DNA from: a virus
Length of the DNA: 64,000 nucleotides
IMG/VR virus record: IMGVR_UViG_3300045988_149288
Reading direction: 5' to 3' (one strand)
This document shows positions 4,095 through 56,625 of the stretch, piece by piece. A model generated the notes under the pieces. It was not told the origin of the DNA. It saw nothing but the letters and a program-made list of their open reading frames with translations, and searched no databases. Numbering within the stretch: position 1 is the stretch's first letter; every line of letters starts with the position of its first letter. The translations under genes were made by a program, and so were the position numbers.

Positions 4095-4115
4095 ATTCTT
4101 AAATTTGTTCCGATT

Positions 4116-4478: not shown

Positions 4479-4490
4479 AGTCTACTCCAA

Positions 4491-5111
4491 TTATTTCTTT
4501 TTAGTATTCTTCTTTGCAGGCTTCTTCTTGTTCTTCTTTCCGTTAACTGCCTCATTTTGGCGGGGCTTAGTTTTCTTCGGAGTGCTTTTGCCTGGCTTGA
4601 CAGTTTTCTCAGTCTTCTTCTTGGTTTCATTTGTTGTTTCCTTACGTGAACGCTTCTTTTCAGTCGGCTTCTTGACCGGCTTAAGAGCCTTTGCAATCTT
4701 CTTCAGATCTTCATCGGAAATCTTGTCGGTTTCCTTTTCAACGACCTTCGGAGTAGCAGGAACTTCAGCCTTAGCCACTTCCAATGTTTCTGGAGTTTCA
4801 GCGAGAACCTTGCCAGCGAGCTCTTCTGTTACAGTATATGTCGGTTCCAATTCAACCATCGGTTCCGGCTTATTTGCTTCTTCGCAAATAATGTTTCCGG
4901 CTTCCATGATGTCGCATGCTGTCTGCTGACATTCTGCTTCATGCTGAGCTGGATCTTCTTCATATCCTTCAATCATAGAGTCAAGCGGATTTTCGTCAAG
5001 CTTAACGATTTCCGGCTTCTGTTCACGCAATGCCTTGCGGAGCAAGAAATATCCGATTACAACCAAGATTACGGCGAGCGCAATCAAACCAATTACTAAT
5101 GTAGTATTCAT
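4491..5111 (-). CDS. membrane protein with Lys-rich histone-H1-like tail
   Basis: N-terminal TM helix LVIGLIALAVILVVIGYFLL; C-terminal KKPTEKKRSRK...KKNKKKPAKKNTKKK. Confidence 0.45.
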   Translation of the reverse strand: MNTTLVIGLIALAVILVVIGYFLLRKALREQKPEIVKLDENPLDSMIEGYEEDPAQHEAECQQTACDIMEAGNIICEEANKPEPMVELEPTYTVTEELAGKVLAETPETLEVAKAEVPATPKVVEKETDKISDEDLKKIAKALKPVKKPTEKKRSRKETTNETKKKTEKTVKPGKSTPKKTKPRQNEAVNGKKNKKKPAKKNTKKK

Positions 5112-6236: not shown

Positions 6237-6237
6237 T

Positions 6238-8445
6238 TTAATCCTCAATACCGAGAAGGTCCGTGTCCTTGTTGAATTCATAAGCATAGATTTCCATTTC
6301 ATCATTACCGCGAAGAACAGTAATCTTTTCATAGAAATCAAACTTATATGTCTTTTCTTCTGTAATAATGGAAACTGTCGAGAATTCCTTAACTACATCC
6401 TTGAGCAAGAACGGAGAAACATAGTATTCATTGAGATTCTTAGTCAACCAGTCTCTCAAGGTAACACGAGCACAACGGCAAATAGCACGAGCAACATCTG
6501 GGTCATACAATGCGAAGCTGTTTGCAAGAGATACACCGTAAACCGAGTTAATGATGAGCTTTTTAGTCATCTGTCGATTATGATACAAATGTTCACCAGC
6601 CTTATCGCCTTTCTTGTGACATTCCTTTTCCTTATTCTTATATACCTTACGTTCTGCAAACACCTGCTTAACAACGTTCGGAAGAATACCGTCATCGCGG
6701 TTATAGAAACCGAGTTCTGCAACGTCTGTCGGAATAACCTCACCTGATTCAATCTGTTCCTTGGTCGGATGAACAACCTTCAATTCCGGAGAGATATGGA
6801 ATTCCATAATGTGGTGCGGATATGACGAGGTAATATCGAAAGACATACAGTCGTCATGTCGACCAGGATAGTCATAGCAATAACCTGCCTTTACCTGGAA
6901 TTCTGGGAACGGATGAGGATCCTTCTTATACGCTTCCCATGCGGCAAGGAAATCCTTTTCAGTTTTCCAATGCTCGAATCTTCTCTGTCCGACAAGTCGC
7001 TTGATTGTATCATAATCATACTTTCCTTCAGTCTGAGCTTCCTTATAAGCATCATAGAAAACACGGAACTTACAATAGTCCTTATAACGTTTTGCGCCCG
7101 GTTCCCATTCAGTGTTCTGGAAGTAATCGTTTCCGTCCTTATCCTTTACGATATAGCAACGTTCGTTTCTCCACCAGTCAACATGATGGTCTTCACGGTC
7201 ATTCAAAACACGGTTGGTCTTATGTAAGAATTTTAAGATATAACCAGTAGTCGTAGGAACCTTCTGTTCAACCTTATCGAGAGTAACAAGGCAATCGAAT
7301 GCATATTCAATAATAAGGTCGAAGAGCTTGTTTTTCTTTTCAAGGTCGACCATAATCATAACGTCTTTTCTGTTATACTTCAGGAAGTTATTACCGTCAA
7401 TCTTGTAGGTTTCAGAAATTGCACCGCTATATTCCAACTTTTGATCATTCAATTCGAGGTTGGCAACATAGTTAAGGGAATACGAAGAAAGAGGCGGATG
7501 AGATCCGAAGACTTCGTACAGTTTCATGTAGTCAAGAGAATACAAACCAGGAATCGTGTACTTCGTTCCAAGTTCAACGTTTTCCATCTTGCGGTCAGTA
7601 ATCTTTTCAGCCACAGGCATCATGCCGAGAGGAGACAGATTCTTTTCCCATTCAACCTTGATGTCGTATTTCTCTCTGAGAACTTCACAACGACGCATGA
7701 TATAGGGAATATCGTATGCGAGCGAGTTCCAACCTGTAATGATGTCAAAATGATTATTGGCGAACCACTTAATCCATTCACGGATAAGTACCATTTCTGA
7801 CTTACAGTACGTATAATTCGGTAAATCCTTCGGGTCATCTGTATATCTGATTGTGCTCCAGGTATAAGATTGACCGGTCTTTGTAGAATAACAAGTAATG
7901 GCGTTAATTGGCCACTGAGCTATTTCAGGAGACGGGAAGTCATAAGAAACGAAACAGCTATCATCATAGGGAAGCCATTTCTGAACTTCAATGTCATAAA
8001 CGAAATACTTGTCATGGTCAAACTTCATATCGAAATCAATAAGACTGATGTCGAGAGTCTTCTTGGTTTTCTTTTCGCAGACCTTAATCAATGTTTCGTC
8101 ATAATACTTACTTCCTGACGCAACTTCAATATCGAAGAAACAGATATTCCATTTGCTCATGTCAACTTGGAGTTCTTCGTTATCGTATAGTTGGTGCATG
8201 TATTTGACTTCTGGACGCAAATTACCTTCACATACGCCTCTAAGACCCATAAGGGAATTACGGTCACTATAATCGAACCGTATCATCGGTGTCTTGTGAA
8301 TGTCAGTAATATTGCTCTTCTTTGAAGGATCCGGCCTGTAGCACCAGTTATGAAATTCAACTTCTTTAAAATCAATATCATCTTGGGCTTTAAAATAGAG
8401 CTTTTGTTTTTTAAAGTCCCAGTAACAATTCTTAAATCCACTCAT
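6238..8445 (-). CDS. family-B DNA polymerase, N-terminal cistron (43A-like: 3'-5' exo, pol motifs A and B)
   Basis: Exo I FFDIEV, Exo II GWNSLAYD, pol motif A DITSSYP, motif B KLIINSVYG. Confidence 0.85.
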   Translation of the reverse strand: MSGFKNCYWDFKKQKLYFKAQDDIDFKEVEFHNWCYRPDPSKKSNITDIHKTPMIRFDYSDRNSLMGLRGVCEGNLRPEVKYMHQLYDNEELQVDMSKWNICFFDIEVASGSKYYDETLIKVCEKKTKKTLDISLIDFDMKFDHDKYFVYDIEVQKWLPYDDSCFVSYDFPSPEIAQWPINAITCYSTKTGQSYTWSTIRYTDDPKDLPNYTYCKSEMVLIREWIKWFANNHFDIITGWNSLAYDIPYIMRRCEVLREKYDIKVEWEKNLSPLGMMPVAEKITDRKMENVELGTKYTIPGLYSLDYMKLYEVFGSHPPLSSYSLNYVANLELNDQKLEYSGAISETYKIDGNNFLKYNRKDVMIMVDLEKKNKLFDLIIEYAFDCLVTLDKVEQKVPTTTGYILKFLHKTNRVLNDREDHHVDWWRNERCYIVKDKDGNDYFQNTEWEPGAKRYKDYCKFRVFYDAYKEAQTEGKYDYDTIKRLVGQRRFEHWKTEKDFLAAWEAYKKDPHPFPEFQVKAGYCYDYPGRHDDCMSFDITSSYPHHIMEFHISPELKVVHPTKEQIESGEVIPTDVAELGFYNRDDGILPNVVKQVFAERKVYKNKEKECHKKGDKAGEHLYHNRQMTKKLIINSVYGVSLANSFALYDPDVARAICRCARVTLRDWLTKNLNEYYVSPFLLKDVVKEFSTVSIITEEKTYKFDFYEKITVLRGNDEMEIYAYEFNKDTDLLGIED

Positions 8446-20655: not shown

Positions 20656-21771
20656 TTATTTATTAAGGTAATCTTCAATAATCTGCTCGTGATGGAAACC
20701 CATCTTCGGGAGGTCATTAACATCGAACCATGCAGCATCCTTGGCGTCGTCACCGGCCTTTGCGAGCTTCTTTTCCTTGCCAGATACCTTCACAGACACT
20801 GCTGTATCGATAATACGCAAGCGTGGGTCAAACATGTGGCTGTAGGTCTTAATCTGCTCAAACTTTTCAACCGGAAGGTCCAGGGACGTTTCTTCGCGGA
20901 ATTCACGCTGTGCTGCATGTTCCAAAGAAGCATCTGCTTTTTCCGGAAGTCCGGTTTCCTTATTAGTATAGTCGGTCGGATTAAAAAAACCACCGGGTGT
21001 GCAGAAGTAGTTCATGTAAGGCGGTTTCTTACGGCGAATCAACAGAACTTGGTCACTAGAAATACCGACAATATCGACGGTATTGGCGAACTTGCCCCAG
21101 CCCTGCTTCTTGTAGTTTTCAAGCCACTGCTTTTCGAGTTCTTCGTAATTGGACGGGTTCTGGTCATAAAGGCTGTTAGTCTTGATAGGCATATCACGGT
21201 CATCAGTCAGTTCGCCTTCTTTACGGATATATTCGAAAACCGGCTTGCTGATATACTGCTTCACATCCTTGTAATGACATTCAGGATTTCTGTAGAAAAT
21301 ATCACGAGCTTCGCTACTGGAAATATCGCCCTTGAGACCGAGATCGAGCAAAGAACAACCTTCACGCTTTTCGATACCAGTCGGAAGACCAGGATAACGA
21401 ACACAGACAATAAACTTGTAATTCTTCAAGAGACGGTCGCTAAACTTCCACTTCTTATCGAGCAATGCCTGCCATTCGTCTTCACCGATAACGATAGTAA
21501 TATCTGTATCTTCGGTTCCGAACTTGGAAGTAATGAATTCATAAGTTCTGTTATTCTGGATAAGAATAGTCGGATTCAACTTACGTGCCTTCATCGCAAC
21601 TTCAACCATAGCGGCACGTTCATTCACTGGCGTCTTGTAATTCTTTTCATCTGTATTGGAAACGATGACATAAAGTTCATCGCCTTTACGAACCTTCTTG
21701 CTCACAGCCTTGATAATAGCTTCATGAGCGTGTGTAATCGGATCAAATGCACCACCAATCAAATACTTCAT
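20656..21771 (-). CDS. bifunctional NMN adenylyltransferase / Nudix hydrolase (NadM-Nudix, NatV-like)
   Basis: N-terminal GGAFDPITHAHEA (HxGH nucleotidyltransferase); C-terminal Nudix box AAQREFREETSL. Confidence 0.8.
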   Translation of the reverse strand: MKYLIGGAFDPITHAHEAIIKAVSKKVRKGDELYVIVSNTDEKNYKTPVNERAAMVEVAMKARKLNPTILIQNNRTYEFITSKFGTEDTDITIVIGEDEWQALLDKKWKFSDRLLKNYKFIVCVRYPGLPTGIEKREGCSLLDLGLKGDISSSEARDIFYRNPECHYKDVKQYISKPVFEYIRKEGELTDDRDMPIKTNSLYDQNPSNYEELEKQWLENYKKQGWGKFANTVDIVGISSDQVLLIRRKKPPYMNYFCTPGGFFNPTDYTNKETGLPEKADASLEHAAQREFREETSLDLPVEKFEQIKTYSHMFDPRLRIIDTAVSVKVSGKEKKLAKAGDDAKDAAWFDVNDLPKMGFHHEQIIEDYLNK

Positions 21772-21772
21772 A

Positions 21773-22141
21773 TTATCTCCCAAAGAAATTTCCACAATGA
21801 GTTTCGACATCACCCATGACATCGCCCTTAACTGTAATGTTTCCGGCTTTTGTTTCTACATCGCCCATAACATCACCGCCAATTTCAACATTGCCAGCTG
21901 AACATTCAACATCACCGTCGACATCACCCTTTACAGTAATATTATGTCCTTTACAGGTACTGATAATGTCGCCATTAACGGTAATGTTGATAATCTTATC
22001 AGTTACTTCAATGGTCTTGGTACCGATAGTGATATTGTTACCATTGATACTAACATCACCAACAGGGTTATGAATTTTATGGCCATTAATTTCGATGCTC
22101 TTTACACCACCGAGACCTTTAAGAATATTCTCTTCAGACAT
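21773..22141 (-). CDS. bactofilin-like beta-helical repeat protein
   Basis: Repeats VKGDVDGDVE / IGGDVMGDVE / VKGDVMGDVE typical of bactofilin (DUF583) windings. Confidence 0.5.
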   Translation of the reverse strand: MSEENILKGLGGVKSIEINGHKIHNPVGDVSINGNNITIGTKTIEVTDKIINITVNGDIISTCKGHNITVKGDVDGDVECSAGNVEIGGDVMGDVETKAGNITVKGDVMGDVETHCGNFFGR

Positions 22142-23837: not shown

Positions 23838-23867
23838 AATAAAAGGCCGACTTGCGTCGACCTTTTA
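23838..23867. terminator. terminator
   Basis: aaaaggccgacttgcgtcgacctttta. Confidence 0.5.
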
Positions 23868-26177: not shown

Positions 26178-27053
26178 TTATCTATTTTTTATAAAATCCA
26201 AAACATCTTTTTTGACTGTTTCATAGTAGTCTTCCCAAATATTGATGACCGTTGTAAGATTCGAACTGCTTACGTCGTCCATCTTCAGCTTCTTTTTGTA
26301 TTTAGGGCAAGCGTTAAATACATATTTGTCGCCAAGTATCGCCTTCGCTTCGTAAATCGGAGATTTACTGGCTCGCGCGGCCCAATCCGAAATGATGTAT
26401 TCAGCCCAACCGACCAAGGACTTGTTTCCGGAATCAGTATTCGGTGTATCGAGACCGGTTCCGAAATTCAAAATCTTGATGTCCTTGTGGTTCTGCTTGA
26501 ACTGACCTGCTAAAAGAACGTCTGTACAGTTATTGGCCCACATGCCACCGTCGCAGAACGAATTTCCCTTATCATCAACAATAACGTCGAAATAGGTCGG
26601 AGCACTGCAACTTGTCAAAATGGCGAACCATTTATTTGTATCAGTATCGCCGAGGTCCCATACCTTTTCTACGGATTCTCCGTTCATGTATGTAACCGGG
26701 ATAAATGTCGGTTTCTTCCAGTCTGAAACCTTACCATTGAAATTCTTTTTCAAGAGAGCTTTCAAATTGGAATTATCATAGGTCGGACAGGACGGTTTCA
26801 AACGCTTATACCAGGAATACTTAGTAAAAATCTTGCTAAGGTTTGCCTTGTAGAGTTCGAAAAGGTCATGTGCCGAATATCCTTCAGAAAGACCGCCAGC
26901 AATGATAGAACCGGTACTTGTTCCAGCAAAAGCCGTTGACAAATCACCGAGTTTCTTACCGAGGTCCTGTTCAAGACGACACATAAAAGCTAATGGGCCG
27001 ATTCCGAGAGCACCACCGCCTTCAACTGAAATACATAATTGTTTCTTTGCCAT
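26178..27053 (-). CDS. patatin-like phospholipase
   Basis: Oxyanion GGGALG, nucleophile elbow GTSTGS (GxSxG), catalytic DGG in FCDGGMW. Confidence 0.8.
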   Translation of the reverse strand: MAKKQLCISVEGGGALGIGPLAFMCRLEQDLGKKLGDLSTAFAGTSTGSIIAGGLSEGYSAHDLFELYKANLSKIFTKYSWYKRLKPSCPTYDNSNLKALLKKNFNGKVSDWKKPTFIPVTYMNGESVEKVWDLGDTDTNKWFAILTSCSAPTYFDVIVDDKGNSFCDGGMWANNCTDVLLAGQFKQNHKDIKILNFGTGLDTPNTDSGNKSLVGWAEYIISDWAARASKSPIYEAKAILGDKYVFNACPKYKKKLKMDDVSSSNLTTVINIWEDYYETVKKDVLDFIKNR

Positions 27054-30382: not shown

Positions 30383-30761
30383 TCAGATTACACTCCATTT
30401 CGTAAATATCTGTCTGGTTCAGAATATATAACTGCGCTTTCTTGAAATCCGTACCGTATTTCAGAAACATGTCATAAAGTACATCGGTAGTGACATCCAT
30501 TCCTGGATGTTTATCATAAAACTCAATAATACTATAATTCGGTTTCATGCCGGTTTCGAGAATATACGACATTCCATAAACCCACAAGTCTTCGACACGC
30601 ATTCCGTTTCGAATAATACTCTGTGCCCATTCATTACAACGTTTTTTATCTACATTACCAGTCCGGGCTTTCTCTTCGTAAAAACAATAACGCATTACGT
30701 CTGGTGCATAATCAGCCCAGTCGTCAACGTCTTTAAAATATTCTGAAAATGTCGACATCAT
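30360..30761 (-). CDS. hypothetical protein
   Basis: 133-aa ORF. Confidence 0.35.
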   Translation of the reverse strand: MMSTFSEYFKDVDDWADYAPDVMRYCFYEEKARTGNVDKKRCNEWAQSIIRNGMRVEDLWVYGMSYILETGMKPNYSIIEFYDKHPGMDVTTDVLYDMFLKYGTDFKKAQLYILNQTDIYEMECNLNDSSNNN

Positions 30762-31087
30762 AAAGACTCCAATGCTAATATAGAATAAAAATAATTAGTA
30801 AACGAGGCACGTTGTTCTTTATCATCCAATTTAAACTTCATTTTGTTTATTTCAGCTGTACACGGAAATGTAAAATGTATTGAATTAGGCTGATTTTTTG
30901 GCTTAGGTTTCTGTCCCCAAATTTTTTCGCCCTTATGTTTGGATGGAGGAGCCGGAGTATAACAGAAATTTTCTACAATATACAAATCAATCGAAATAGG
31001 TTCGGTACTATTCCAAAAATTATAACTATAGTGAATACCTGTAACACTATATGTCGAACCATTAATTTTAACTTTTACTACTGCCAT
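30758..31087 (-). CDS. hypothetical protein
   Basis: 109-aa ORF. Confidence 0.35.
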   Translation of the reverse strand: MAVVKVKINGSTYSVTGIHYSYNFWNSTEPISIDLYIVENFCYTPAPPSKHKGEKIWGQKPKPKNQPNSIHFTFPCTAEINKMKFKLDDKEQRASFTNYFYSILALESL

Positions 31088-31097
31088 ACGTATAATA

Positions 31098-31130
31098 TAG
31101 AAAAAGGGTCGACTTACGTCAACCCTTTTA
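31098..31130. terminator. terminator (GTCAACCC hairpin family)
   Basis: aaaagggtcgacttacgtcaaccctttta. Confidence 0.55.
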
Positions 31131-31151: not shown

Positions 31152-32801
31152 TTAGCGGCGGCGGCGACGCGTTGCTTCGGAAATGACGGACGGATCGTTC
31201 ATCAAATCAGCGAGGTTGCGACCGATAGAAGAAGTATTGAATGCGGCAGATTCCTTAGTCGGATCTTCCTTCGGCTGTGGAGTTTCCGGACGAGCTTCGT
31301 CCTTGGCTTCGTTTACGACTTCAGCTTCAGCCTTTTCGACCTTCGGAGCGCCGGAAACACCAGCGAGTCGGGCACCGAACATAGAACCGAGAACGGTCTT
31401 AAGGTCCATACCGAGAGAATCGGTCAAACCGCTAGAAATCTGAGTAAGCGTCTTGGTAATATCGCCGGTAAGCTTTGCGGTACCACTTTCACCGTACATG
31501 TTGATGTTACCAATCTTTTCCATCGGCTTAGCAACTGCGGCAGCGACAGCCGGGAGCTGTTCGAAATACTTTTCGATGGTCTTGAGCTGCATTTCCTGAC
31601 GAGCTGCGTCACCATACTTCTTCATGGCTTCAGCCTTCTGGTCAAGAGCTGCTGCTTCTGCAAGACCCTTAGCCTTTACAGCATCAGCCTCAGCTTCACC
31701 TTTAGCCTTAGTAGCTGCGGCTTCAGCGAAAGCCTTTTCCTTATCAGCTTCAGCCTTGGCGATAATTGCCTTAGCTTGCTGCTGCTGGGTAAAGAGTGCT
31801 GCTTCAGCTTCCTTCTGCTGCTTATAAAGTTCAGCATCAGAACGCTGCATCTGAGCCTGCTTATCGGCTTCAGCCTTCTTCTGAATTTCAGCTTCGAGTT
31901 CCTTCTGACGGACAGCTACCATACGTTCGCGAATTTCAATCTGTTTTTCCTGCTTTGCAACTTCTGCAGCTGCTGCGGTAATATTGATGGTCTTCTGCTG
32001 TTCCTGCTTCTGAATTTCATAAGCGGCATCAGCTTCGGCCTTCTTAGTATCAGAAATTCGCTTAAGGTCAGCCTTCTTAACTTCGAGGTCGTTCTGCTTC
32101 TGAGCGATTTCAAGGTTTGCTGCAACCTGAGCGTCGTTTGCGGTCTTTGCTGCTTCAGCTTGAGCAATCTTCACGTCACGTTCTGCATTTGCTCGAGAAA
32201 TTGATGCAGCCTTCTGAATAGCCACTGCCTTATCGACACCGAGGTTTTCAATAACCTTACCGTCATCGGAGAAGTTCTGAATATTGAAGGTCTTAACGAT
32301 AATACCGAGTTTTTCAAGGTCTGGAATAGCATTTTCGAGAACCTTTTCAGAAACCTGCTTTCGATCCGTAACCATGTCGACCAGATTCATCTGACCAACA
32401 ATCTCACGCATATTACCCTCAAGCACGTCAACAATCATCGCCTTAATCTGTTCAATCGGTTTATTGAGGAAGTTCTGTGCAGCTTTCTTAATTGCTTCAG
32501 GTTCATCAGAAATCTTCGCATTAACAACAGCGTCAACTGTTACATTAATGTAGTCCTTGGTCGGAACTGCCTGCTTAGTCTTGACGTCAATCGGAATCAA
32601 CTTCAAGCTAAGAACGTCAGCACGTTCAAGGAACGGGATCTTGAAACCAGCATGTCCGATAATTGTTCGAAGCTGTCGGAAACCCGAAATAATAATTACT
32701 TCATCCGGCGCCGCCTTAATGTAAGACGTAATGAAGAGGATAACGAGGAAAAGTACGAGCAGGCCGATACCCGCACCGATGAGGATATTTGAACTAATCA
32801 T
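31152..32801 (-). CDS. flotillin (SPFH/band-7 domain + EA-rich flotillin repeats)
   Basis: N-terminal TM, SPFH-like region, long EAxxK/AEAA coiled-coil repeats typical of FloT/YqiK. Confidence 0.75.
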   Translation of the reverse strand: MISSNILIGAGIGLLVLFLVILFITSYIKAAPDEVIIISGFRQLRTIIGHAGFKIPFLERADVLSLKLIPIDVKTKQAVPTKDYINVTVDAVVNAKISDEPEAIKKAAQNFLNKPIEQIKAMIVDVLEGNMREIVGQMNLVDMVTDRKQVSEKVLENAIPDLEKLGIIVKTFNIQNFSDDGKVIENLGVDKAVAIQKAASISRANAERDVKIAQAEAAKTANDAQVAANLEIAQKQNDLEVKKADLKRISDTKKAEADAAYEIQKQEQQKTINITAAAAEVAKQEKQIEIRERMVAVRQKELEAEIQKKAEADKQAQMQRSDAELYKQQKEAEAALFTQQQQAKAIIAKAEADKEKAFAEAAATKAKGEAEADAVKAKGLAEAAALDQKAEAMKKYGDAARQEMQLKTIEKYFEQLPAVAAAVAKPMEKIGNINMYGESGTAKLTGDITKTLTQISSGLTDSLGMDLKTVLGSMFGARLAGVSGAPKVEKAEAEVVNEAKDEARPETPQPKEDPTKESAAFNTSSIGRNLADLMNDPSVISEATRRRRR

Positions 32802-32838
32802 TTGTGTTCCTTTTGTTGAGTTTTTATTTGTTAAGAGC

Positions 32839-33579
32839 TTAATCGTTCAGCCATGAGTTCTCCATTGCAATGAAGACACAGCAGATTACGATAATAACCG
32901 TTGAGAAAATAAGCCAGAAGTAAAGTACAGTGTGTTTCCAACTGAATGACTCTACCGCCTGGTCAATGCGTACACCATCTCGATATTCAGCATCATTCAT
33001 CCGATGATTATCAATATTGGCATAAACAGTTCCAGTATAGCTTAAAGACCTACAATAATAAACATATCTCTTATGATGAGCAAAATTAATCGTCTTTACA
33101 TAATGACCTTCCGGCAATTTCGGGAATTGACTGTAATAAAAGTCCTTCTTGATGAAATTGACCTTATCAACAGCCCAATCCTTGGCACCGTGATAGTCCC
33201 AGGTCCAATATACCTTGGTATGACAGCTACGTGTCTTACCAGAACCAGTACAGACGAGCTTTGTGTGCATCGTATAGACCTCAAGCACTCGATGTATCGA
33301 CATATACTGGCCAGGCAAACCGTTGTCCGTAACGCTTCCTATTGCATTAACGGTGCCGTATGCCAAAGTATGCCCAGCATTGGTTTTAAAAGCATATTCA
33401 AACTGTGTGGAATCGTTATCGATCTTTACAGCCTGATTATACTTGGCGTTATGTTCGTCCTGCCAAATACCCATCCTGTTCCCGACATAGAAACCTACGC
33501 CGAGGGAGATAAGGGCGAAAATGAGGGCGATAATAACTTCGCGCTGGGTTACTTCAATATTGGTATTACCAAGATACAT
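32839..33579 (-). CDS. membrane protein (N- and C-terminal TM helices flanking a soluble domain)
   Basis: TM IIALIFALISLGVGFYV and VLYFWLIFSTVIIVICCVFIAM. Confidence 0.4.
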   Translation of the reverse strand: MYLGNTNIEVTQREVIIALIFALISLGVGFYVGNRMGIWQDEHNAKYNQAVKIDNDSTQFEYAFKTNAGHTLAYGTVNAIGSVTDNGLPGQYMSIHRVLEVYTMHTKLVCTGSGKTRSCHTKVYWTWDYHGAKDWAVDKVNFIKKDFYYSQFPKLPEGHYVKTINFAHHKRYVYYCRSLSYTGTVYANIDNHRMNDAEYRDGVRIDQAVESFSWKHTVLYFWLIFSTVIIVICCVFIAMENSWLND

Positions 33580-33583
33580 TTAT

Positions 33584-34135
33584 TTAGTCCTTGAGAAGTC
33601 CAGTAGGTGCGTCAACAGGCGCATTCTTGAATTCGAGGAATTCATAATCCTTTTCTTGATACCCGAGAATGCTTAAGAACATACGAGTCGGGAACATACG
33701 AACATGTTGCTTGTATTCACGAACATTCGAATTGTAATACTTACGGTGTGAAGAAATACGGTTTTCAGTCATCGCAAGTTCCGTCATATAACGGTCATAA
33801 TTCTCGATACTGCGAAGCTGAGGATAGCGTTCTACAACGCCCTTGATATATGCAGAAGCATTAACATTGCCATTGCCTTCACTTGGCGTACGAGCCTGAG
33901 ACAACTGGACAAGCACTTCAGCTTCATGCTTGTTATAGGATTTGACTGCTTCAGCCAAATTCACGAGCAAACCGGATCTACGGTTGTATTCTGCGTTCAA
34001 ATCACTTAGAGAGCTTTCAATAAGCTGTTCCTTTGCGATTGCGGTATTCTGCGAACTCTGAATTCCGAGCACGCCAGCGATGATTGCGGCACCGATGACC
34101 AAAAGGCCTACGAGTAGCATTGTTACGGGTTTCAT
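33584..34135 (-). CDS. lemA: LemA-family membrane protein
   Basis: N-terminal TM plus LemA-like core (LVNLAEAVKSY...ARTPSE...RMFPTRMFLSILGYQEKDYEF). Confidence 0.65.
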   Translation of the reverse strand: MKPVTMLLVGLLVIGAAIIAGVLGIQSSQNTAIAKEQLIESSLSDLNAEYNRRSGLLVNLAEAVKSYNKHEAEVLVQLSQARTPSEGNGNVNASAYIKGVVERYPQLRSIENYDRYMTELAMTENRISSHRKYYNSNVREYKQHVRMFPTRMFLSILGYQEKDYEFLEFKNAPVDAPTGLLKD

Positions 34136-34144
34136 TGGTTTCTC

Positions 34145-34651
34145 CTATTTGTTTAAAAGTTCAGAATAGTCCTTGATAACCTTGGCAGTGTCGACATCAT
34201 CGACCTGATTATCGTTATCTTCCTTGCCAAGAATAAAATCTTCGTTTCCAAGATATTGGAAAGACCAAGAAATTGTCTTTCCATCATGACTTTCAAGTAA
34301 TGGAACAAGAATATAATACTTGCCATTGAATTTCTTATTCTTATCCTGCAATTTCTTCAGAATATCGATAGCCGATTGCTTGATAATCATATTTCGAATA
34401 TCAAGAATATCTTTTTCGGTAAGACGGTTCAAACTATCTGTATATGACCAAAATACGAGCTTATCGTAACGGAACCATTCGTCAACGACCGTGCCATAAT
34501 TCTCTCGCATATAGCTTGTAACGGTTCGTTCTTCCTTCTTCTTTTCGTTTGTCTTTTCGTAATAGTCAATATAGGCCCTAGCAGTAAGGCGATTAACCAC
34601 AATAGTCCAGATTGTCAAGAAAATTACGCCTGTGATAACAAATGCAACCAT
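34145..34651 (-). CDS. membrane-anchored protein
   Basis: N-terminal TM MVAFVITGVIFLTIWTIVVN. Confidence 0.4.
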   Translation of the reverse strand: MVAFVITGVIFLTIWTIVVNRLTARAYIDYYEKTNEKKKEERTVTSYMRENYGTVVDEWFRYDKLVFWSYTDSLNRLTEKDILDIRNMIIKQSAIDILKKLQDKNKKFNGKYYILVPLLESHDGKTISWSFQYLGNEDFILGKEDNDNQVDDVDTAKVIKDYSELLNK

Positions 34652-34687
34652 TTAAGTCTCCGTATTTACGTGTCTAAATATAAAAAA

Positions 34688-34715
34688 AGAGTTGACGTTT
34701 GTCAACCCTTTTTAT
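34688..34715. terminator. terminator (GTCAACCC family)
   Basis: aaaaaagagttgacgtttgtcaaccctttttat. Confidence 0.55.
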
Positions 34716-34730
34716 CAATTATTTACAGGC

Positions 34731-35102
34731 TTATTCTTTTTTGATGTTGTTTATGGTCTGCATAATCTTATTCTGATCTTCTAATGCCTTTACAAGGTGT
34801 TCCACTTGACAGTTCAACTTAACAAGTTCCTGGTTAACAAGATTAAGTCTATCATCTATGGATTCAAGTCTTGTTTTGTGAATATCCACAATTTCTTCAA
34901 GATTTGAAACTTTGAATTTAAGGCTGAGAATGTCATCATGAATAGATTGACTATCCGCATCGCGGTTTACTTTTGTTACTTTTCTATCATCTTCAACTTT
35001 TTTAAATTTGAAGTAAAGATATACACATCCCAAAATCACCGCTACTAACGGAAGCGCAGACGGATTTATCGCCGCTATAATCGCTGTTATCGTATTAGTC
35101 AT
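34731..35102 (-). CDS. membrane-anchored coiled-coil protein
   Basis: N-terminal TM + coiled-coil. Confidence 0.4.
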   Translation of the reverse strand: MTNTITAIIAAINPSALPLVAVILGCVYLYFKFKKVEDDRKVTKVNRDADSQSIHDDILSLKFKVSNLEEIVDIHKTRLESIDDRLNLVNQELVKLNCQVEHLVKALEDQNKIMQTINNIKKE

Positions 35103-35131: not shown

Positions 35132-36448
35132 TTAGTCCTTAAACAGCGTATATCCGGCCTGCAAAAGAATACGTTTCGCTTCGTTGAAATCGTCAACATC
35201 GGAAATTTCTTCTTTATTCTTCCAATATTCTGCTGTTTCCTTATCAATCTGGTCTACCATGAAGGTAGTAACTTCATCAAAAATCTTAAACAATGTTCTA
35301 GTAGTATAGCCACGGTTGAATACAATCTTGAACTTGTCATAGAATTCCTGGATTGTACCTTCGAAAGCACCTCTCTGACCGACATGGAACTTACGGTTGA
35401 GCTGGTTCATACAATACTTGTAGCTTTCGACTACCTGCTTCTTATCGACCTTACCAATTTTGGACTTATCGACAGAACCTTCTTCAGCGGCAACTGCTGC
35501 AATCTTCTTGATAACGCCGATAGGAATCGCGAATCCACCGAAGTTACCGGAGAAACTTCCGAAATAATCGGTATCACGGTCGTCAGAACCGGCGAGATTG
35601 CCAGAAGCGATACGACGCTTTTCTTGTTTTTCAATCTGGTCGATGTACTTCGGATCGTCAAGAGCCTTCATAATACGCTTCAATTCACGTTCAAGAGCGG
35701 TTTCATCTGCATGGATAACCTTATGTCCAGCCATTTCGCCAACCATCTTGGCAACGTAGAAGAATAAGCCCTTATTTCCGATAATACGTTCGGCATCCGG
35801 CATATTTAAGAGGTCTTCGAGCTTATCAAGAACATATTCGCTGAGGCAATAGTTATCGCCAGCCTTACGAGCACGGTGCCAGTCCCAGAATTCGTCAATG
35901 GCTTCTTCATAGCTTCCAGCATAATCCTTAACGACATACGGAGCAAGCCAACGTACAGCCTTATCGTAATCTTTTCCGAAAACTTCCCTAGCCTTTTCAG
36001 GGTCATTTCGGAACATATCAATCATCTGCTGCATAGTCTTGTCCTGACTCGGGTCAAAGGATGAAAGATCATTGCCTTCAGACTTGGCCTTGTAGTATGC
36101 CCAGAAAGTATCAATCATATCATCATACTTGTCTTTATTTTCTTCAACATAGGCATGATTATCATCCAAATCGATATTATACTTCTTTGCCCAATTGTTG
36201 ATATTCCAGTTCAAGTCAATTCTACCAGTGCTTCCCTTCCAATACTTTATATTGAGCATATTAAGTATCTTTTCGGCGTCATCACCATAATAACGCTCGA
36301 TAAACTTGTAGGTCTGGTTAGGTGTAACTTTTCCCTGATTCTTATTGGCAAAATCCTGAAGAACATAGAGAACATTAGCCATTGATTCCCTTCCGAGGGT
36401 TCTATCCGAAGCACGGGACATTTCGTTAATAATATTCTTAAATCTCAT
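35132..36448 (-). CDS. hypothetical protein (438 aa)
   Basis: long ORF; TATAAATA motif upstream. Confidence 0.4.
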   Translation of the reverse strand: MRFKNIINEMSRASDRTLGRESMANVLYVLQDFANKNQGKVTPNQTYKFIERYYGDDAEKILNMLNIKYWKGSTGRIDLNWNINNWAKKYNIDLDDNHAYVEENKDKYDDMIDTFWAYYKAKSEGNDLSSFDPSQDKTMQQMIDMFRNDPEKAREVFGKDYDKAVRWLAPYVVKDYAGSYEEAIDEFWDWHRARKAGDNYCLSEYVLDKLEDLLNMPDAERIIGNKGLFFYVAKMVGEMAGHKVIHADETALERELKRIMKALDDPKYIDQIEKQEKRRIASGNLAGSDDRDTDYFGSFSGNFGGFAIPIGVIKKIAAVAAEEGSVDKSKIGKVDKKQVVESYKYCMNQLNRKFHVGQRGAFEGTIQEFYDKFKIVFNRGYTTRTLFKIFDEVTTFMVDQIDKETAEYWKNKEEISDVDDFNEAKRILLQAGYTLFKD

Positions 36449-38298: not shown

Positions 38299-39396
38299 TT
38301 AAAGGATTTCAAAATACGGTGCATACTTTTCCATCACTTCGACAACCTTCTTATATTCAATCTTGTCAAGATTCTTCGGAAGCATCATACCGCCCTTATT
38401 AATCAAATCTTCACAATGAGAATAATAAAGGAGCTTGTCTTCTTCTCGAGCAATCTTTTCCTGTTCAATAACAAGGTTAAATTCCTTCTTCGGAAGATAC
38501 TTCTTGAAATTCGAAATATACTTAGTATAGACAGACTTCAATTCTTCGGCATGTTCAGGATCTGTTGTTGCGGAAAGAATCAAAAGACCGTTATTGACAT
38601 ATTCCATGACACCAGCACGAGACTGATATGCAAGACCACGCTTTTCACGGATTTCATGATAAAGCGGAGAAGTCAACTTACCGTTAAGCATTTCAAGAGC
38701 GATAACGACATACGGATAGTCCTTCTTAGAAACCGGTCTCCTACAGATTGCAAAAACCGTTTCTTTTTCAGGAGCGGGAACAGGCATCAAATTAACCCTG
38801 TAATCCTTCTTCCAACGAAGATTAACTGTAATCTGCGGTTCCTTTGTCAAGAACTTGACCTTGACACCAGTAGTCTGGCGAGGACCAACTTCGACAATAC
38901 GAACAGGCTTGAAAAGTTCCTTATAGAGCTTCTTAGCGTCTGCAAGAGTAAAATTCATAACGTCTTCAGTCTTACCGAGAACAAGCTCGTTATTGAAGTG
39001 TTGACGAAGAATATTATGGAGCTTACCTTCTACAGGACGGTTATAGGCATCCAAGATTTCCTGATAAACAATCTTCTGTTCCTTTTCGAAAACTTCCTTG
39101 GTAACGTAAGTTTCGAAACCGCTGGTAACGCGTTCAATAAGCAACTTCTTCCATTCCGGAGTAAGATACTTGTCCATGCCAGTAAAATGAACAACGAGCA
39201 AGTCAGTGCTAGTATAAGCATTAAAATTAATGTTATACTTCTGGAAATCATCGAATTGGTCCTGAATGGTATTTGTAATCAAATGTTCCATCAGGTGATG
39301 ACAACCGTGCTGACCTTCCTTTTCATAGCTGGAGCCAGCTTTGAATACGATATACAAGCCAGTCTTCTTAAAAGATTTCTTCTTATAGATATACAT
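38299..39396 (-). CDS. M16-family (pitrilysin/insulinase-like) zinc peptidase
   Basis: Inverted zinc motif HxxEH in GCHHLMEHL near N-terminus. Confidence 0.55.
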   Translation of the reverse strand: MYIYKKKSFKKTGLYIVFKAGSSYEKEGQHGCHHLMEHLITNTIQDQFDDFQKYNINFNAYTSTDLLVVHFTGMDKYLTPEWKKLLIERVTSGFETYVTKEVFEKEQKIVYQEILDAYNRPVEGKLHNILRQHFNNELVLGKTEDVMNFTLADAKKLYKELFKPVRIVEVGPRQTTGVKVKFLTKEPQITVNLRWKKDYRVNLMPVPAPEKETVFAICRRPVSKKDYPYVVIALEMLNGKLTSPLYHEIREKRGLAYQSRAGVMEYVNNGLLILSATTDPEHAEELKSVYTKYISNFKKYLPKKEFNLVIEQEKIAREEDKLLYYSHCEDLINKGGMMLPKNLDKIEYKKVVEVMEKYAPYFEIL

Positions 39397-45619: not shown

Positions 45620-46342
45620 TTATTCTCCAATCATTTTCTTTAAATTCTGAACAGTGTCTTTATATGTTCCACCCGAACTGATAAGTTCAATCCAGGATGG
45701 GTCTAATTTCTGGGTCGTAAAACAAGCGCCAGTAGAAACTTCTTCTTCGAGTTCCGTATATTCTGGGTCCTTATATACTTTTACGGACTCTGGCAGACGA
45801 ACCAGATATGTATTCCTACCGTAAGCTCTCATGGCTTCGATTGTATAATAGACGTTATCCCAGAATTCGTACTTGTTCTTTACATGAGCCGCAATTTCTT
45901 CAAGGCTCCAAAGATATACACGGCCTTCGTTATAAATCGGACCTACCTTGGTCGCATTCGGCTCTTCATCAGTCCATGCGTTTTCCTTATGCGGTCGGAA
46001 TCCAATCTTCGAGAACACTTCGATATTTCTATGAGCTGCACGAAGATATAAACCGTGGAACTGCTTTGCAAATTTCGAATCTGACTTATATTCAGTCCTG
46101 GAATTTCTCAAAACAAGTGACCAGTCGCTATATGCACCGATTCTCCAACCATAGTTATCAAGAAGCTCGTCGAAACCCTTTACGGTGTAGTCAATCTTGT
46201 CGAAAATAGAAGGATCCATTTCGATTACGCTATCCGTCTCGTCGAGAACATAATGGGCAACGTCAATACCGAGCTTTCCCTTCAAGAACCCGACCAGCTG
46301 CTTAGGAGTGGTGGTATGTGTAAGAAATTCAACTAGACGCAT
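45620..46342 (-). CDS. hypothetical protein (paralog of 44804..45619)
   Basis: see above. Confidence 0.4.
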   Translation of the reverse strand: MRLVEFLTHTTTPKQLVGFLKGKLGIDVAHYVLDETDSVIEMDPSIFDKIDYTVKGFDELLDNYGWRIGAYSDWSLVLRNSRTEYKSDSKFAKQFHGLYLRAAHRNIEVFSKIGFRPHKENAWTDEEPNATKVGPIYNEGRVYLWSLEEIAAHVKNKYEFWDNVYYTIEAMRAYGRNTYLVRLPESVKVYKDPEYTELEEEVSTGACFTTQKLDPSWIELISSGGTYKDTVQNLKKMIGE

Positions 46343-46674
46343 TCTTTACCTATAATCAACTTTATATTCTTCTTGATTTCATATGTCAGTGAATCAGGAA
46401 CTATTGGAAGAACCTTGATTGTACTGTCGTCGATAATCATTGTTACATGGCTGTTTCCGAAAATGTAGTAGAAGTTGATTTCTGTTCCTCTGTCTTCCAC
46501 TGATAACGAAAGTGCTTTAGTGTCTTTATTCTCGTTAGTCCTCGACATGATAACATTACGGTCGTGAATCGACTTGTTCATATCCGTAAAAACAGTCTTG
46601 ACATTATTGTAATTAATTGATCGCCAGTTTATATTGTCGTTCATATCATATTTATAAGTGGACAAAAATCCCAT
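46333..46674 (-). CDS. hypothetical protein
   Basis: 113-aa ORF. Confidence 0.3.
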   Translation of the reverse strand: MGFLSTYKYDMNDNINWRSINYNNVKTVFTDMNKSIHDRNVIMSRTNENKDTKALSLSVEDRGTEINFYYIFGNSHVTMIIDDSTIKVLPIVPDSLTYEIKKNIKLIIGKECV

Positions 46675-46700
46675 TTTTATAAATATATCAGTGAGGATTT

Positions 46701-47966
46701 ATGAAATTAACAGAAGCTAAAAAAATACTTGTGGAATATGGATATTTGCTTAAAGAATATTCGCCGCATCAAGAAACATATAGCCATGACAGTGAAGGCT
46801 GGGATGAAGCCGAAAAGCGTTTTAAGGCCGGTGCAGACTTAGTAAAAAAGAAAATTGATTCTTTGGACCTCGAAATTACTTCTGAAAATATGTCAGAACC
46901 CGCTCCGATGAATGATACATGGAATTATACCGTTAGGGCTAAATCTGATAATAATCTGACTTATTATTTTTCATTCCATGAAACTAAGCCAGAACGTCTT
47001 AAAGGAAAAGAAGATGTTAAAGGCGAGATGTATGATTACCGTTATTACGTATCTGTTGACGGTGCAATCAATAAGACTCTTTCGCCTGAAAAATCTTTTG
47101 AAAATTCTATAGATTGCGCTAAAGAAATGATAAATGCGATTGATTCCGTGATAAATATTGATACTTCTGGAGTAATTGCGGTTGCTGATAAGATTAAAGA
47201 TGAGTTAGACCCTTGGACTGCAAAGGGATATACAGTAAATGTTAAGATAAAAGAAGCAAATTATGGACATAATAAAGACTACGAAACATTCCTTGACATC
47301 ATTGTACAAAAGAAACTCAGTGACGAAGTTAGGAAATATACATATCAGGGATTTTCTGAACATTTGGCTGTAGCTTTCACCATTAATGGTAAAACATTAA
47401 AATGGAATATTTCTGCTATAAGAGGACATTCTCCGGAAACGATTTCCGCTGATGAAGGTTCTCTTGATAAAATGACTGAATTGATTCAGAAATATGTTCT
47501 TATAAAATATAATGAAATGCTGAGATCGATGAGCGATTCCAAGAAGCGTGCCAATACAGTCAAACCAGATAATTCTAATAAGAAGAAAGCGCAAGCCCGT
47601 CTTAAAGCACACATAGAGGACTTACTCGAAACCGATCTTATCGGTAATTTCGATAAGGCAGTAGAACTTAATAAGGATTACGTCAACGCCATAATCATGA
47701 AACCTGTTGCAGAAGCAGTAAATGATTATGTATATGATAATTACAGTGACGAAGACGGTAGCGTAGGTACTTGGGATGCTGATGACGCTTGGGATTATTT
47801 CGATGATGACTTTGTTGGTTATATCGAAAAGGAATGGAACGGTAGTATTAAGGACTATTGTGATGAATCCGATATTACAACCCTTGACGAATTACAGGAA
47901 GATGTAAAAGAAAATTGGGATTGGGATAGACCAAGCGAAAGTGCATTAGAATACGACCCATATTAA
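46701..47966 (+). CDS. acidic hypothetical protein (421 aa)
   Basis: plus-strand ORF preceded by TTTTTATAAATATAT...GAGGATTTATG and followed by a terminator. Confidence 0.45.
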   Translation: MKLTEAKKILVEYGYLLKEYSPHQETYSHDSEGWDEAEKRFKAGADLVKKKIDSLDLEITSENMSEPAPMNDTWNYTVRAKSDNNLTYYFSFHETKPERLKGKEDVKGEMYDYRYYVSVDGAINKTLSPEKSFENSIDCAKEMINAIDSVINIDTSGVIAVADKIKDELDPWTAKGYTVNVKIKEANYGHNKDYETFLDIIVQKKLSDEVRKYTYQGFSEHLAVAFTINGKTLKWNISAIRGHSPETISADEGSLDKMTELIQKYVLIKYNEMLRSMSDSKKRANTVKPDNSNKKKAQARLKAHIEDLLETDLIGNFDKAVELNKDYVNAIIMKPVAEAVNDYVYDNYSDEDGSVGTWDADDAWDYFDDDFVGYIEKEWNGSIKDYCDESDITTLDELQEDVKENWDWDRPSESALEYDPY

Positions 47967-47984
47967 TAGTTAATAAATTATAAA

Positions 47985-48015
47985 ATAAAAACCGGTTAAT
48001 TATAACCGGTTTTTA
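47985..48015. terminator. bidirectional terminator
   Basis: aaaaccggttaattataaccggttttt. Confidence 0.65.
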
Positions 48016-49220: not shown

Positions 49221-50366
49221 TTATGATTTACGTCTTACGCAAATCGTAAAACCAAGAAAAGCTATTAAATATAAACTAGCTAAAATTAAGTATAATATAT
49301 TACCCGTAAAGGTATTTGCAAGAATTACAGAAGTTATACCAGCTAAACCCCAACCAGAAAGTGTCATTGAATGAACAGTTGATAAACAACTATCACCAAA
49401 TTGCTTAGCTAATAATGATGGCAATACAGAAAAATTACCGCCATATGCAAATTCACAGAATAATATACCACCTACCAATAAAACCGGATTTTGTGTATAA
49501 CATAAAAATGCGCCTAAAATACCAATAGTACATATAACATTATAGCTTCCTTTTCGTCCAATATAATCACTGGCCGTACTCATTCCAAATCGACCGCCGA
49601 CATTTGCAACAGCGGTAGCAGCCATGAGTGAAGCAATAGCAGTATATCCAGCATTTAAAAATAAGCTTTTTTCCTGTGAAATCAAAGCGAGTCCGCACGT
49701 AATGTTGATAAAGAACATGAACCAGATGGAAATATATTCTTTCGTCAGGAATTTCGCTTTCCATAGGTTCTTATAAGGAACAGCGGTATAGATGGTCGAA
49801 ATAAATGCAGGATTCGGTCTATATAACCAGGAAGAGAAAGACATTACTACAAGGAAAATCAGTCCCATGAGCAAGAATACAACAGGCAACGTAAAGTTTG
49901 CAAGCAAGTATTCAATCATAGGTGCTGCAACAAATTTACCAAGACCGAAACCACAAATACTTAATCCACTAAAAAATCCTTTATGATTTTGAGATAATGA
50001 TAATAATTGTTTAATGGGCGACGTATAACCTATACCAGTGCCGGTTCCCATAAATGAACAACCAATATAATATAATGGTAAAATTCCGGTATAAGATGCA
50101 AATGAGATAGTTAATAATCCTATTGCAAACAAAATTGTTGAAACTATCGCCATTCGTTTAGGAAACATTTCAACGAATCTTCCAAAAACAGCCGCACCCA
50201 TACCAAGGAAGAAAATAATCAATGTAAATCCAATATCAGCGGAGAACTTTGAAATATTAAAAACCTCCATGATATTTTTAGCATATTGCGAATAATTATA
50301 TACACTTCCTAAAACTAATGGAATAAAAATTCCTGGTAAAACAATATTAAATAAATCTTTTTTCAT
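49221..50366 (-). CDS. major facilitator superfamily transporter (10-12 TM)
   Basis: MFS motif-A-like GRFVEMFPKR and DYIGRKG; 12 hydrophobic segments; AT-rich; flanked by cassettes B and C. Confidence 0.65.
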   Translation of the reverse strand: MKKDLFNIVLPGIFIPLVLGSVYNYSQYAKNIMEVFNISKFSADIGFTLIIFFLGMGAAVFGRFVEMFPKRMAIVSTILFAIGLLTISFASYTGILPLYYIGCSFMGTGTGIGYTSPIKQLLSLSQNHKGFFSGLSICGFGLGKFVAAPMIEYLLANFTLPVVFLLMGLIFLVVMSFSSWLYRPNPAFISTIYTAVPYKNLWKAKFLTKEYISIWFMFFINITCGLALISQEKSLFLNAGYTAIASLMAATAVANVGGRFGMSTASDYIGRKGSYNVICTIGILGAFLCYTQNPVLLVGGILFCEFAYGGNFSVLPSLLAKQFGDSCLSTVHSMTLSGWGLAGITSVILANTFTGNILYLILASLYLIAFLGFTICVRRKS

Positions 50367-56593: not shown

Positions 56594-56625
56594 AAAAGGC
56601 TGACTTTCGTCAACCTTTTTTATTT
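56594..56625. terminator. terminator (GTCAACC family)
   Basis: aaaaaggctgactttcgtcaaccttttttatttt. Confidence 0.55.

Follow-up and report, generated by a model that had tools for sequence, protein, structure and literature searches.

The window analysed in this work is a stretch of 64,000 nucleotides from a virus (IMG/VR record IMGVR_UViG_3300045988_149288). Between positions 31,152 and 35,102, it carries five consecutive genes for membrane proteins, which an earlier note had read as a membrane-microdomain cluster with a flotillin and a LemA protein. The five open reading frames (ORFs) claimed there are all present on the minus strand, and their coordinates are exact. In the order of transcription, they encode a protein of 123 amino acids (aa; 34731..35102), a protein of 168 aa (34145..34651), a LemA-family protein of 183 aa (33584..34135), a protein of 246 aa with two transmembrane (TM) helices, here called the two-TM protein (32839..33579), and a flotillin of 549 aa (31152..32801). 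A 438-aa gene (35132-36448, minus strand) precedes them. Flotillins, like other SPFH proteins, are conserved scaffolds of membranes, and what they do in bacteria is debated; LemA is a very widespread family.

The best-supported transcription unit predicted here comprises the 168-aa, LemA, two-TM and flotillin genes (34651 to 31152). The gaps inside it measure 4-37 bp, with 4 bp between LemA and the two-TM gene and 37 bp before the flotillin gene. A strong terminator-like hairpin lies right after the flotillin stop codon (31129-31102), and a near-identical one lies between the 123-aa and 168-aa genes (34713-34684). The five genes had been described as flanked by terminators. This holds on the flotillin side, but the upstream terminator falls inside the cluster. 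Both hairpins overlap a sigma-70-like TTGAC...TATATT promoter, a consensus that may not apply to a Fibrobacter host. The first of these hairpin-promoter cassettes (34677..34713, minus strand) has a stem of 13 pairs, a T run and a promoter match of 11/12; its sequence is AAAAAGGGTTGAC-AAAC-GTCAAC-TCTTTTTT-TATATT. The second (31094..31129, minus strand) has a stem of 12 pairs, a T run and a promoter match of 10/12. We propose that the first cassette ends the upstream unit and starts the four-gene operon, and that the second ends this operon and serves as promoter of the next gene (30758-31087, minus strand). The promoter and terminator activities are putative and come from consensus matches. The 123-aa gene follows the 438-aa gene after 29 bp, with no terminator between them, and on this layout is part of the preceding unit.

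The flotillin matches two Pfam families above their gathering cut-offs. Band_7 (PF01145) covers residues 30-207 (6.7e-22; 78.8 bits against a cut-off of 23.6), and Flot (PF15975), which represents the coiled-coil and C-terminal region, reaches 5.4e-10 (39.9 bits against 27). The full-length flotillin with an SPFH domain described in the earlier note is thus confirmed. The NCBIfam model of FloT (NF058507) is matched at 8.8e-73 over positions 7-475 of 477, but the score of 246 bits misses the equivalog cut-off of 700. Judged by these profiles, the phage protein is a flotillin, yet no orthologue of FloT. Residues 29-469 align with human flotillin-1 of the cage structures 9L3G and 9BQ2, solved by cryo-electron microscopy, and flotillin-1/2 are matched at 2e-47. 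The architecture consists of an N-terminal membrane anchor, the SPFH domain, a Glu/Ala-rich coiled coil, the flotillin C-terminal region and a tail. Because of its homology to the flotillin complexes 9L3G and 9BQ2 and to the QmcA complex 8Z5G, the phage flotillin would assemble into a large, membrane-attached oligomeric cage.

To orient the membrane proteins, we made a positive-inside analysis of 74 LemA, 78 two-TM and 26 flotillin sequences. The hydrophobic segment of the flotillin (residues 6-24) has a mean hydropathy of 3.15 and an uncharged N-terminus, and the 26 family members share these features; the bulk of the protein is predicted to be cytoplasmic. All versions in the phage clade carry a C-terminal tail that is absent from the cellular relatives in a comparison of 17 flotillins. 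This tail is of low complexity, spans ~40-65 residues and has a basic end, which in the window copy reads RRRRR. The domain order and the near end-to-end profile coverage are those of bacterial and eukaryotic flotillins (the FloT/YuaG type and the human flotillin-1/2 cage). The phage copy differs from them in being encoded by a jumbo phage, in the added basic tail and in its score below the FloT cut-off. It also differs in its neighbours, since LemA and two-TM genes precede it and no neighbouring gene matches NfeD. The two cellular flotillin loci of Fibrobacterales type have neither LemA nor NfeD adjacent.

The product of 33584..34135 reached 94 bits with LemA (PF04011; 1e-26; Pfam cut-off 26.2). 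It also matched PDB 2ETD, the Thermotoga maritima LemA and sole solved structure of the family (8e-20), and phrog_1383 (1.8e-29). Its assignment to the LemA family, proposed in the earlier note, therefore stands on the Pfam and 2ETD matches. A TM helix at residues 7-25 is followed by the helical LemA domain. The family has on average 2.8 lysines plus arginines before this helix and 1.2 after it (74 sequences). We predict that the N-terminus is inside and the helical domain outside the cytoplasm; a published topology prediction for the family agrees with the location of the domain (PMC3905215).

MamQ is the sole LemA-family member tied to a process: it organises membrane proteins before the invagination of the magnetosome membrane and is required for the normal formation of that membrane (PMC4902198). 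Phage LemA proteins resemble MamQ in their N-terminal TM helix and helical LemA domain, and both are encoded beside other membrane proteins. However, the phage-borne subfamily is always followed by a partner composed of a TM helix, a beta-domain and a second TM helix. The MamQ equivalog (NF040966) matched residues 88-166 of the window protein with 54.1 bits, below its cut-off of 250. By this measure, the phage LemA is no orthologue of MamQ.

The two-TM protein matched an uncharacterised phage family, phrog_3886, at 4.3e-47, with residues 7-244 on positions 5-262 of the 263 in the profile. It had no match in Pfam, NCBIfam or PADLOC. An AlphaFold2 (AF2) model built from an alignment of 22 sequences is confident, with a predicted local distance difference test score of 88.5. 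It places an N-terminal TM helix at residues 12-48, an almost all-beta domain at 51-201 and a C-terminal TM helix at 217-238. The model and the hydrophobicity bear out the N- and C-terminal TM helices noted earlier. Across the family, the alignments show invariant aromatic residues, including a YWTWD motif, and the jumbo-phage clade has an additional CTGxGK...CHT motif. Homologues in several clades end in long basic C-terminal tails. Given these tails and the positive-inside analysis (78 sequences), both termini are predicted to be inside and the beta-domain extracytoplasmic.

The earlier note had called this protein TPM-like and the usual partner of LemA. It is an obligate partner of LemA (see the counts below), but it is not TPM-like: the TPM fold is mixed alpha/beta, the AF2 domain is all-beta, and no TPM/DUF477 match was found. 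Ten diverse family members also gave no Pfam match, and TPM_phosphatase was absent at E values up to 0.1. A GIDE/MUL1-like identity, suggested by the labels 'RING-type E3 ubiquitin transferase' and 'transmembrane protein 43' of some records, was rejected together with the TPM-like one, as neither the protein nor the ten members match Pfam. In bacteria, LemA with a TPM (DUF477) neighbour shows a similar arrangement, that is, a LemA gene followed by a membrane-anchored protein with an extracytoplasmic domain. Nevertheless, the phage partner has a predicted all-beta domain, forms its own family (phrog_3886) and matches nothing in Pfam.

A Foldseek search of the model against PDB returned nothing below E=0.03, so no solved relative was found there. 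The best match in BFVD has a TM-score of 0.70 and 269 aa. It probably corresponds to the LemA-adjacent coding sequence of Lactococcus phage PLg-TB25, which BLAST missed; the length of 269 aa is what connects the two. The fold also matches giant-virus ORFans in BFVD with a Foldseek probability of 1.0 and TM-scores of 0.39-0.45. These are Satyrvirus A0A3G5ACZ2 and A0A3G5ACS0, Tupanvirus A0A6N1NH03 and Klosneuvirus A0A1V0SLC3. The two-TM family is large, with 906 representative clusters at 50% identity in an exhaustive profile search.

Related loci, 134 in all and referred to below by L numbers, were gathered from deposited phages, GTDB genome bins, IMG/VR and metagenome contigs. Every ORF in them was scored with iterated profiles built from the window proteins. 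The gene directly before the two-TM gene, on the same strand, is LemA in 5/5 deposited phages, in 11/11 genome-bin loci and in 75/80 IMG/VR loci. LemA is somewhere in the locus in 79 of the 80 IMG/VR loci with a two-TM gene. The deposited phages with the pair are an Enterococcus Schiekvirus, Lysinibacillus LC76P1, a gut phage contig, Latilactobacillus TMW 1.46 P1 and Lactococcus PLg-TB25. The two-TM protein is an obligate partner of LemA in phages. Since their genes are always adjacent, the two proteins most likely form a complex. The remaining neighbours are highly variable (42 downstream and 39 upstream clusters), and therefore the pair behaves as a self-contained two-gene cassette, which by this pattern is moving among phages. 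Other up- and downstream neighbours of the pair gave no Pfam match.

The position of the pair differs between phages. In Schiekvirus, it lies among genes for a nicotinamide mononucleotide (NMN) transporter, a NadR-like protein, ribonucleotide reductase and a kinase. In the temperate siphophages (38-40 kb), it closes the early module, immediately ahead of RinA and terminase and outside the lysogeny module. This placement with early and nucleotide genes, and not in the lysogeny module, gives the pair the look of a lytic-cycle function. Most of the genome-bin loci look like prophages by eye from their ORFs, with SSB, terminase or portal-like neighbours, and two look cellular.

Deposited records name these genes inconsistently, as 'LemA', 'virion structural protein', 'putative repressor', 'transmembrane protein 43' or 'RING-type E3 ubiquitin transferase'. 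The structural label is found in the annotation of phrog_1383 and in the RefSeq names for EFDG1, EfV12-phi1, ZJGS2 and EA1. Taken at its word, it would make LemA, the two-TM protein and the flotillin packaged components of the virion. We give this almost no credence. In GenBank, the same LemA genes go by 'LemA family protein' or 'hypothetical protein', and all the products have TM helices. The gene context of the pair is non-structural in every annotated phage examined, with early and nucleotide genes around it. In the literature searched, there was no report of LemA in Schiekvirus virions, and the structural label could not be traced to data.

The flotillin joins the pair in one phage group. 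It lies within 5 kb of the pair in 8/80 IMG/VR loci, all from a group of rumen and gut jumbo phages (350-420 kb) that includes the window phage. Two sub-clades of this group carry the trio in different settings. The order is 168-aa gene, LemA, two-TM, flotillin in the window clade. It is PolyA_pol, LemA, two-TM, 136-aa gene, flotillin in the clade of L005 and L040. Between the two, LemA is 73%, the two-TM protein 47% and the flotillin 69% identical, and the flanking genes differ. A bactofilin-like identity of the 136-aa protein was rejected, with no Pfam match. In L005, a TnpB/IS605 OrfB-type gene with a Cas12f-like TNB domain (3610-4881) lies ~1.3 kb upstream of the block. A degenerate-codon DNA scan of IMG/VR, aimed at relatives with flotillin only that might have the pair at another place in the genome, returned just three contigs that were already known, and it did not recover the 416-kb contig. 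The earlier note spoke of a complete set of five genes. The conserved unit is in fact LemA with the two-TM gene.

The block of LemA, two-TM, 136-aa and flotillin genes is also present on short contigs of two metagenome-assembled genomes (MAGs), L020 (Fibrobacter sp. ruminal_MAG_346) and L021 (Prevotella sp. ruminal_MAG_415). In both, the window proteins find their matches at the same coordinates and with the same percentages, although the bins span two phyla. As the same block is found in GTDB representative MAGs of different phyla, phage contigs appear to contaminate the bins. L019, binned as a Clostridia MAG, also has a phage-like look.

The 168-aa and 123-aa proteins are both TM-anchored, as noted earlier, each with one N-terminal TM helix (residues 1-19 in the 168-aa protein), and their bulk is predicted to be cytoplasmic. 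The 168-aa protein has no match in Pfam, PHROGs, NCBIfam or PADLOC; the 123-aa protein has weak coiled-coil matches and no family assignment. The 168-aa gene is restricted to the window clade (7/80 IMG/VR two-TM loci) and always lies directly upstream of LemA. The 123-aa gene was detected in L004, L032 and L112 alone, all of them copies of the window phage. L033, L034 and L042 lack it; there, 80 bp separate the 438-aa gene from the 168-aa gene that comes next. Relatives with a two-TM protein 89% and a flotillin 96% identical to those of the window are thus without the gene. A dedicated five-gene system does not fit these data, as the 123-aa gene is strain-specific and lies upstream of a hairpin cassette, and the 168-aa gene is clade-specific.

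The hairpin cassettes recur in the genome. The motif AAGGGTTGAC-N4-GTCRAC is present at four intergenic sites of the window, as minus-strand elements at 23842-23865, 31104-31127, 34687-34710 and 56595-56618 (8 matches over both strands against 0.34 expected). The extended element, an intergenic hairpin overlapping a sigma-70-like promoter, reads AAAAGGGTTGAC-N4-GTCRAC-CCTTTTT-TATATT. L034, whose flotillin is 96% identical, has cassettes at both of the same positions, one of them just past the flotillin, and in the clade of L118 and L121 a cassette lies directly 3' of the 438-aa gene. The gene-content differences among relatives, which concern the 123-aa gene and the block of 168-aa, LemA and two-TM genes, coincide exactly with these cassettes. 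T4-type phages have similar regulatory cassettes, the promoter-early stem-loops (PeSL). Both are short intergenic hairpins over a sigma-70-like promoter that recur in a T4-like genome, and the cassettes here mark the points at which relatives differ in gene content. In contrast with PeSL, the motif is specific to this phage group, and its promoter and terminator are putative.

We compared 17 flotillins in a distance tree. All flotillins of the jumbo-phage group form one clade, sister to two cellular genes at 68-73% identity. One of these genes is in an NCBI MAG named Fibrobacterales, beside a Fib_succ_major paralogous domain, an HrpA-type helicase and an ABC-F protein. The other has SbcC, glycosyltransferase, DsbD and ECF-sigma genes as neighbours. 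Most likely, the ancestor of the phage group captured the flotillin once from a host of Fibrobacterota type. The direction from host to phage is suggested by the sister relationship, with two cellular sequences sampled, and by flotillin being a cellular family. A second viral flotillin clade, at 41-44% identity, is present on other contigs of 250-413 kb (L122-L134). A lone flotillin, ~57-65% identical, was found in a T4-like pig-gut phage of ~221 kb, beside neck-protein and RegA-like genes (L012-L014, 53-221 kb). Flotillin capture by large gut and rumen phages appears to be recurrent.

LemA has another history. Its relatives at 66-99% identity are all in the jumbo-phage clade, and the named one among them is a protein of a Clostridia MAG (72%), which probably belongs to a phage-like contig of the L019 type. 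Beyond this clade, identity falls to 52% or less. No named Fibrobacter homologue was among the matches, most of which carry no source name. The simplest history compatible with these relationships is that a LemA/two-TM cassette carried by phages and a Fibrobacterota-type flotillin came to lie side by side in an ancestor of the phage group, and that some lineages would later have lost or relocated the cassette.

Selection on the three genes was estimated as the ratio of non-synonymous to synonymous substitution rates (dN/dS). Between diverged phages, the two-TM gene has a ratio of 0.05-0.10, LemA of 0.09 and the flotillin of 0.09-0.16, so all three are under strong purifying selection. A further comparison gave ~0.44 for the 168-aa gene. 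The 168-aa protein evolves far faster than its neighbours, with 33-54% identity where the flotillin has 88-96%; in two phages with flotillins at 96.5% identity, it reaches just 54%. Such fast divergence is often found in proteins engaged with the host or a competitor.

The operon has genes for replication and nucleotide metabolism around it, not structural ones. The window is part of a metagenomic contig of 418,491 bp (ENA ERZ27229658:k119_414475), in which the exact flotillin sequence is found. Within the window are genes for a split family-B DNA polymerase, UvsX, a T4-type RNA ligase, an NAD-dependent ligase, a dUTPase-like NTP pyrophosphohydrolase and an NMN-adenylyltransferase/NUDIX fusion; UvsY and dCMP deaminase lie in the flank beyond it. 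Given the length of the contig and these T4-like replication genes, the source is a jumbo phage of the gut or rumen whose replication apparatus is T4-like. A virulent lifestyle is plausible. Megablast found no close deposited relative, and the DNA polymerase is ~30% identical to cyanophage gp43. Because of the flotillin similarity, the host is probably a member of the Fibrobacterota. The neighbourhood suggests that the operon belongs to the early or middle class.

Other features of the window are described here for completeness. The polymerase is split over consecutive ORFs at 5160-6341 (N-terminal exonuclease and palm) and 6238-8445 (C-terminal part), which as listed share an overlap of ~100 nt. 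Host-like auxiliary genes are found at 20656-21822, 26178-27053, 38299-39396 and 49221-50366. This set comprises the cytidylyltransferase-like/NUDIX fusion, a patatin-like phospholipase, an M16 (insulinase-type) peptidase and an MFS transporter. The fusion is of the NAD-salvage type known from gut jumbo phages (PMC11662467). The phospholipase and the transporter are additional membrane-directed functions. The sole large plus-strand gene is 46701-47966, the rest of the window being transcribed from the minus strand. GC and AT skew are locally reversed at 46001-48000, where this gene lies. Its single match is weak (DUF1007; 24.7 bits against a cut-off of 27).

Since the genes are phage-borne and lie among replication and nucleotide genes instead of structural ones, a membrane-directed function for the phage is a reasonable reading. 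The predicted topologies imply that the operon would decorate both faces of the cytoplasmic membrane. We tentatively favour, as a little short of probable, a role in conditioning the host membrane during infection by means of a two-sided scaffold. After infection, the phage would install this scaffold as its own. Flotillin cages would form oligomeric domes on the cytoplasmic face, each enclosing a patch of membrane, and complexes of LemA and its partner would sit on the outer face, possibly at the same patches. The host membrane might thus be kept organised, sealed and energised over the long cycle of a jumbo phage, as host gene expression declines. A secondary option is that the membrane would become refractory to the entry of superinfecting DNA or to abortive-infection (Abi) effectors that target membranes. 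Complex formation, co-localisation and the physiological role are all suppositions at this stage.

The precedents for such a role are the flotillin cages, MamQ and the pspA-ydjGHI operon of Bacillus subtilis. In that operon, two membrane proteins encoded directly upstream anchor an SPFH protein and share with it and PspA in the protection against membrane stress (PMC8581546). The likeness lies in the operon logic, with membrane proteins (YdjG and YdjH) encoded directly upstream of the SPFH protein (YdjI) (PMC8581546), and not in family membership. YdjI is a soluble protein that depends on its partners to bind the membrane. The phage flotillin has an anchor of its own, and the phage operon has no PspA gene.

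Several observations weigh against membrane conditioning by a joint scaffold. Most loci have one part without the other: 72/80 IMG/VR pair loci have no flotillin within 5 kb, and 15/23 viral flotillin loci have no pair. Even close relatives with flotillins 78-80% identical to the window copy lack the pair at the locus. The order in L118, L119 and L121 is 438-aa gene, cassette, flotillin, and in L015 the flotillin follows the PolyA polymerase. The bulk of the flotillin and that of LemA and its partner are predicted on opposite faces of the membrane, and contact between them would thus be limited to TM helices and short tails. Between the window and L034 (flotillin at 5781-7421), dS is 0.215 for the flotillin and at least 1.0 for the 438-aa and two-TM genes. 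This discordance indicates mosaicism and suggests a recent recombinational exchange of the flotillin between lineages. A joint action of flotillin and pair is a conjecture. Finally, the host was assigned from flotillin similarity alone, and the sigma-70-type consensus may not suit it if it is a Fibrobacter.

The same observations would be expected if the flotillin, derived from the host, and the LemA/two-TM pair were independent accessory genes that act separately and became neighbours in a shuffling hot spot bounded by cassettes. Gains and losses exactly at the cassettes, both of the 123-aa gene and of the block of 168-aa, LemA and two-TM genes, fit such modular shuffling together with the discordant flotillin dS and the variable neighbours of the pair. 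We regard independent action, the main alternative, as possible but doubtful. Where the flotillin-bearing sub-clades have the pair, it lies directly upstream of the flotillin, despite a divergence down to 47-73% identity and other flanks. The gap before the flotillin is short (37 bp), the genes form one predicted transcription unit, and all the products would be in the same membrane.

The genes could also serve in superinfection exclusion or anti-defence. An outward complex of LemA and the two-TM protein, clustered or stabilised by the flotillin, would then stop the DNA of competing phages at the cytoplasmic membrane or neutralise Abi effectors that act on membranes. Comparable exclusion of superinfecting phage is known from T4 Imm and Sp, membrane proteins made early in the lytic cycle. 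The patchy distribution of the cassette in unrelated phages (temperate siphophages, Herelleviridae and jumbo phages) is in keeping with such a function, and so are the predicted extracytoplasmic domains anchored in the cytoplasmic membrane. The pair is placed with early genes, its presence differs between close relatives, and the fast evolution of the 168-aa protein, predicted to be co-transcribed, suggests an arms race. However, LemA and the two-TM gene themselves show strong purifying selection and no diversification. In temperate phages, the pair lies outside the lysogeny module, where prophage exclusion genes are usually located. No homology to known exclusion or defence proteins was found in PHROGs, Pfam, NCBIfam or PADLOC; the PADLOC matches of the window proteins were at chance level (E 0.0025-0.0097) and fell in coiled-coil regions. 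On balance, we consider exclusion unlikely.

A more ambitious possibility is that flotillin cages and a MamQ-like LemA drive invagination or vesiculation of the membrane, and so build a compartment for replication or assembly. The need for MamQ, a LemA-family protein, in the formation of the magnetosome membrane (PMC4902198) is a point for it, as are the full-length homology to the cage-forming flotillin-1/2 and the neighbourhood of replication genes. The genome is that of a jumbo phage, and for other members of this class, vesicles and nucleus-like compartments around the genome have been reported (PMC12931631). Nevertheless, we find a phage-built compartment very unlikely. The module is missing from close relatives that share the replication genes, and therefore it is not essential for replication. 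The pair is also present in siphophages of 38-40 kb. No chimallin or other compartment gene was seen, although none was searched for.

The individual protein families are known. The obligate cassette of LemA and a beta-domain protein, its union with a host-type flotillin in a clade of jumbo phages, and the phage-specific tail of this flotillin appear to be undescribed. The literature searched contains no description of a phage-encoded flotillin, a phage LemA or the two-TM family. SPFH, flotillin and LemA are not mentioned in a comparative jumbo-phage survey or in a study of gut jumbo phages, and the publications that name both flotillin and jumbo phage describe no phage flotillin. One phage genome paper lists SPFH-domain proteins in passing among putative host-metabolism genes, and another phage paper mentions flotillin for a prophage integrated into the host floA.

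The flotillin is kept under purifying selection in jumbo phages, which points to a selectable role in infection and offers a natural gain-of-function system for a family of debated function. For LemA, the obligate phage partner provides an interaction that can be tested and a phenotype to seek. This partner contributes a beta-domain without a solved relative, whose predicted fold recurs in giant-virus ORFans. The pair is a candidate module for membrane conditioning or exclusion that is common in gut, rumen and dairy phages. Although the jumbo phage is uncultured, the pair is present in cultivable systems (Enterococcus Schiekvirus, Lactococcus and Latilactobacillus phages) and can be tested there. 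A broader and improbable conjecture is that this clade builds flotillin-caged membrane domains that confine a MamQ-like LemA and its partner, or are shaped by them, as an organelle or platform on which the genome enters, replication takes place or assembly proceeds. The cassette, with its 906 representative clusters in siphophages, Herelleviridae and jumbo phages and with relatives of the fold in giant viruses, would then be a general viral module for membrane remodelling that has escaped notice.

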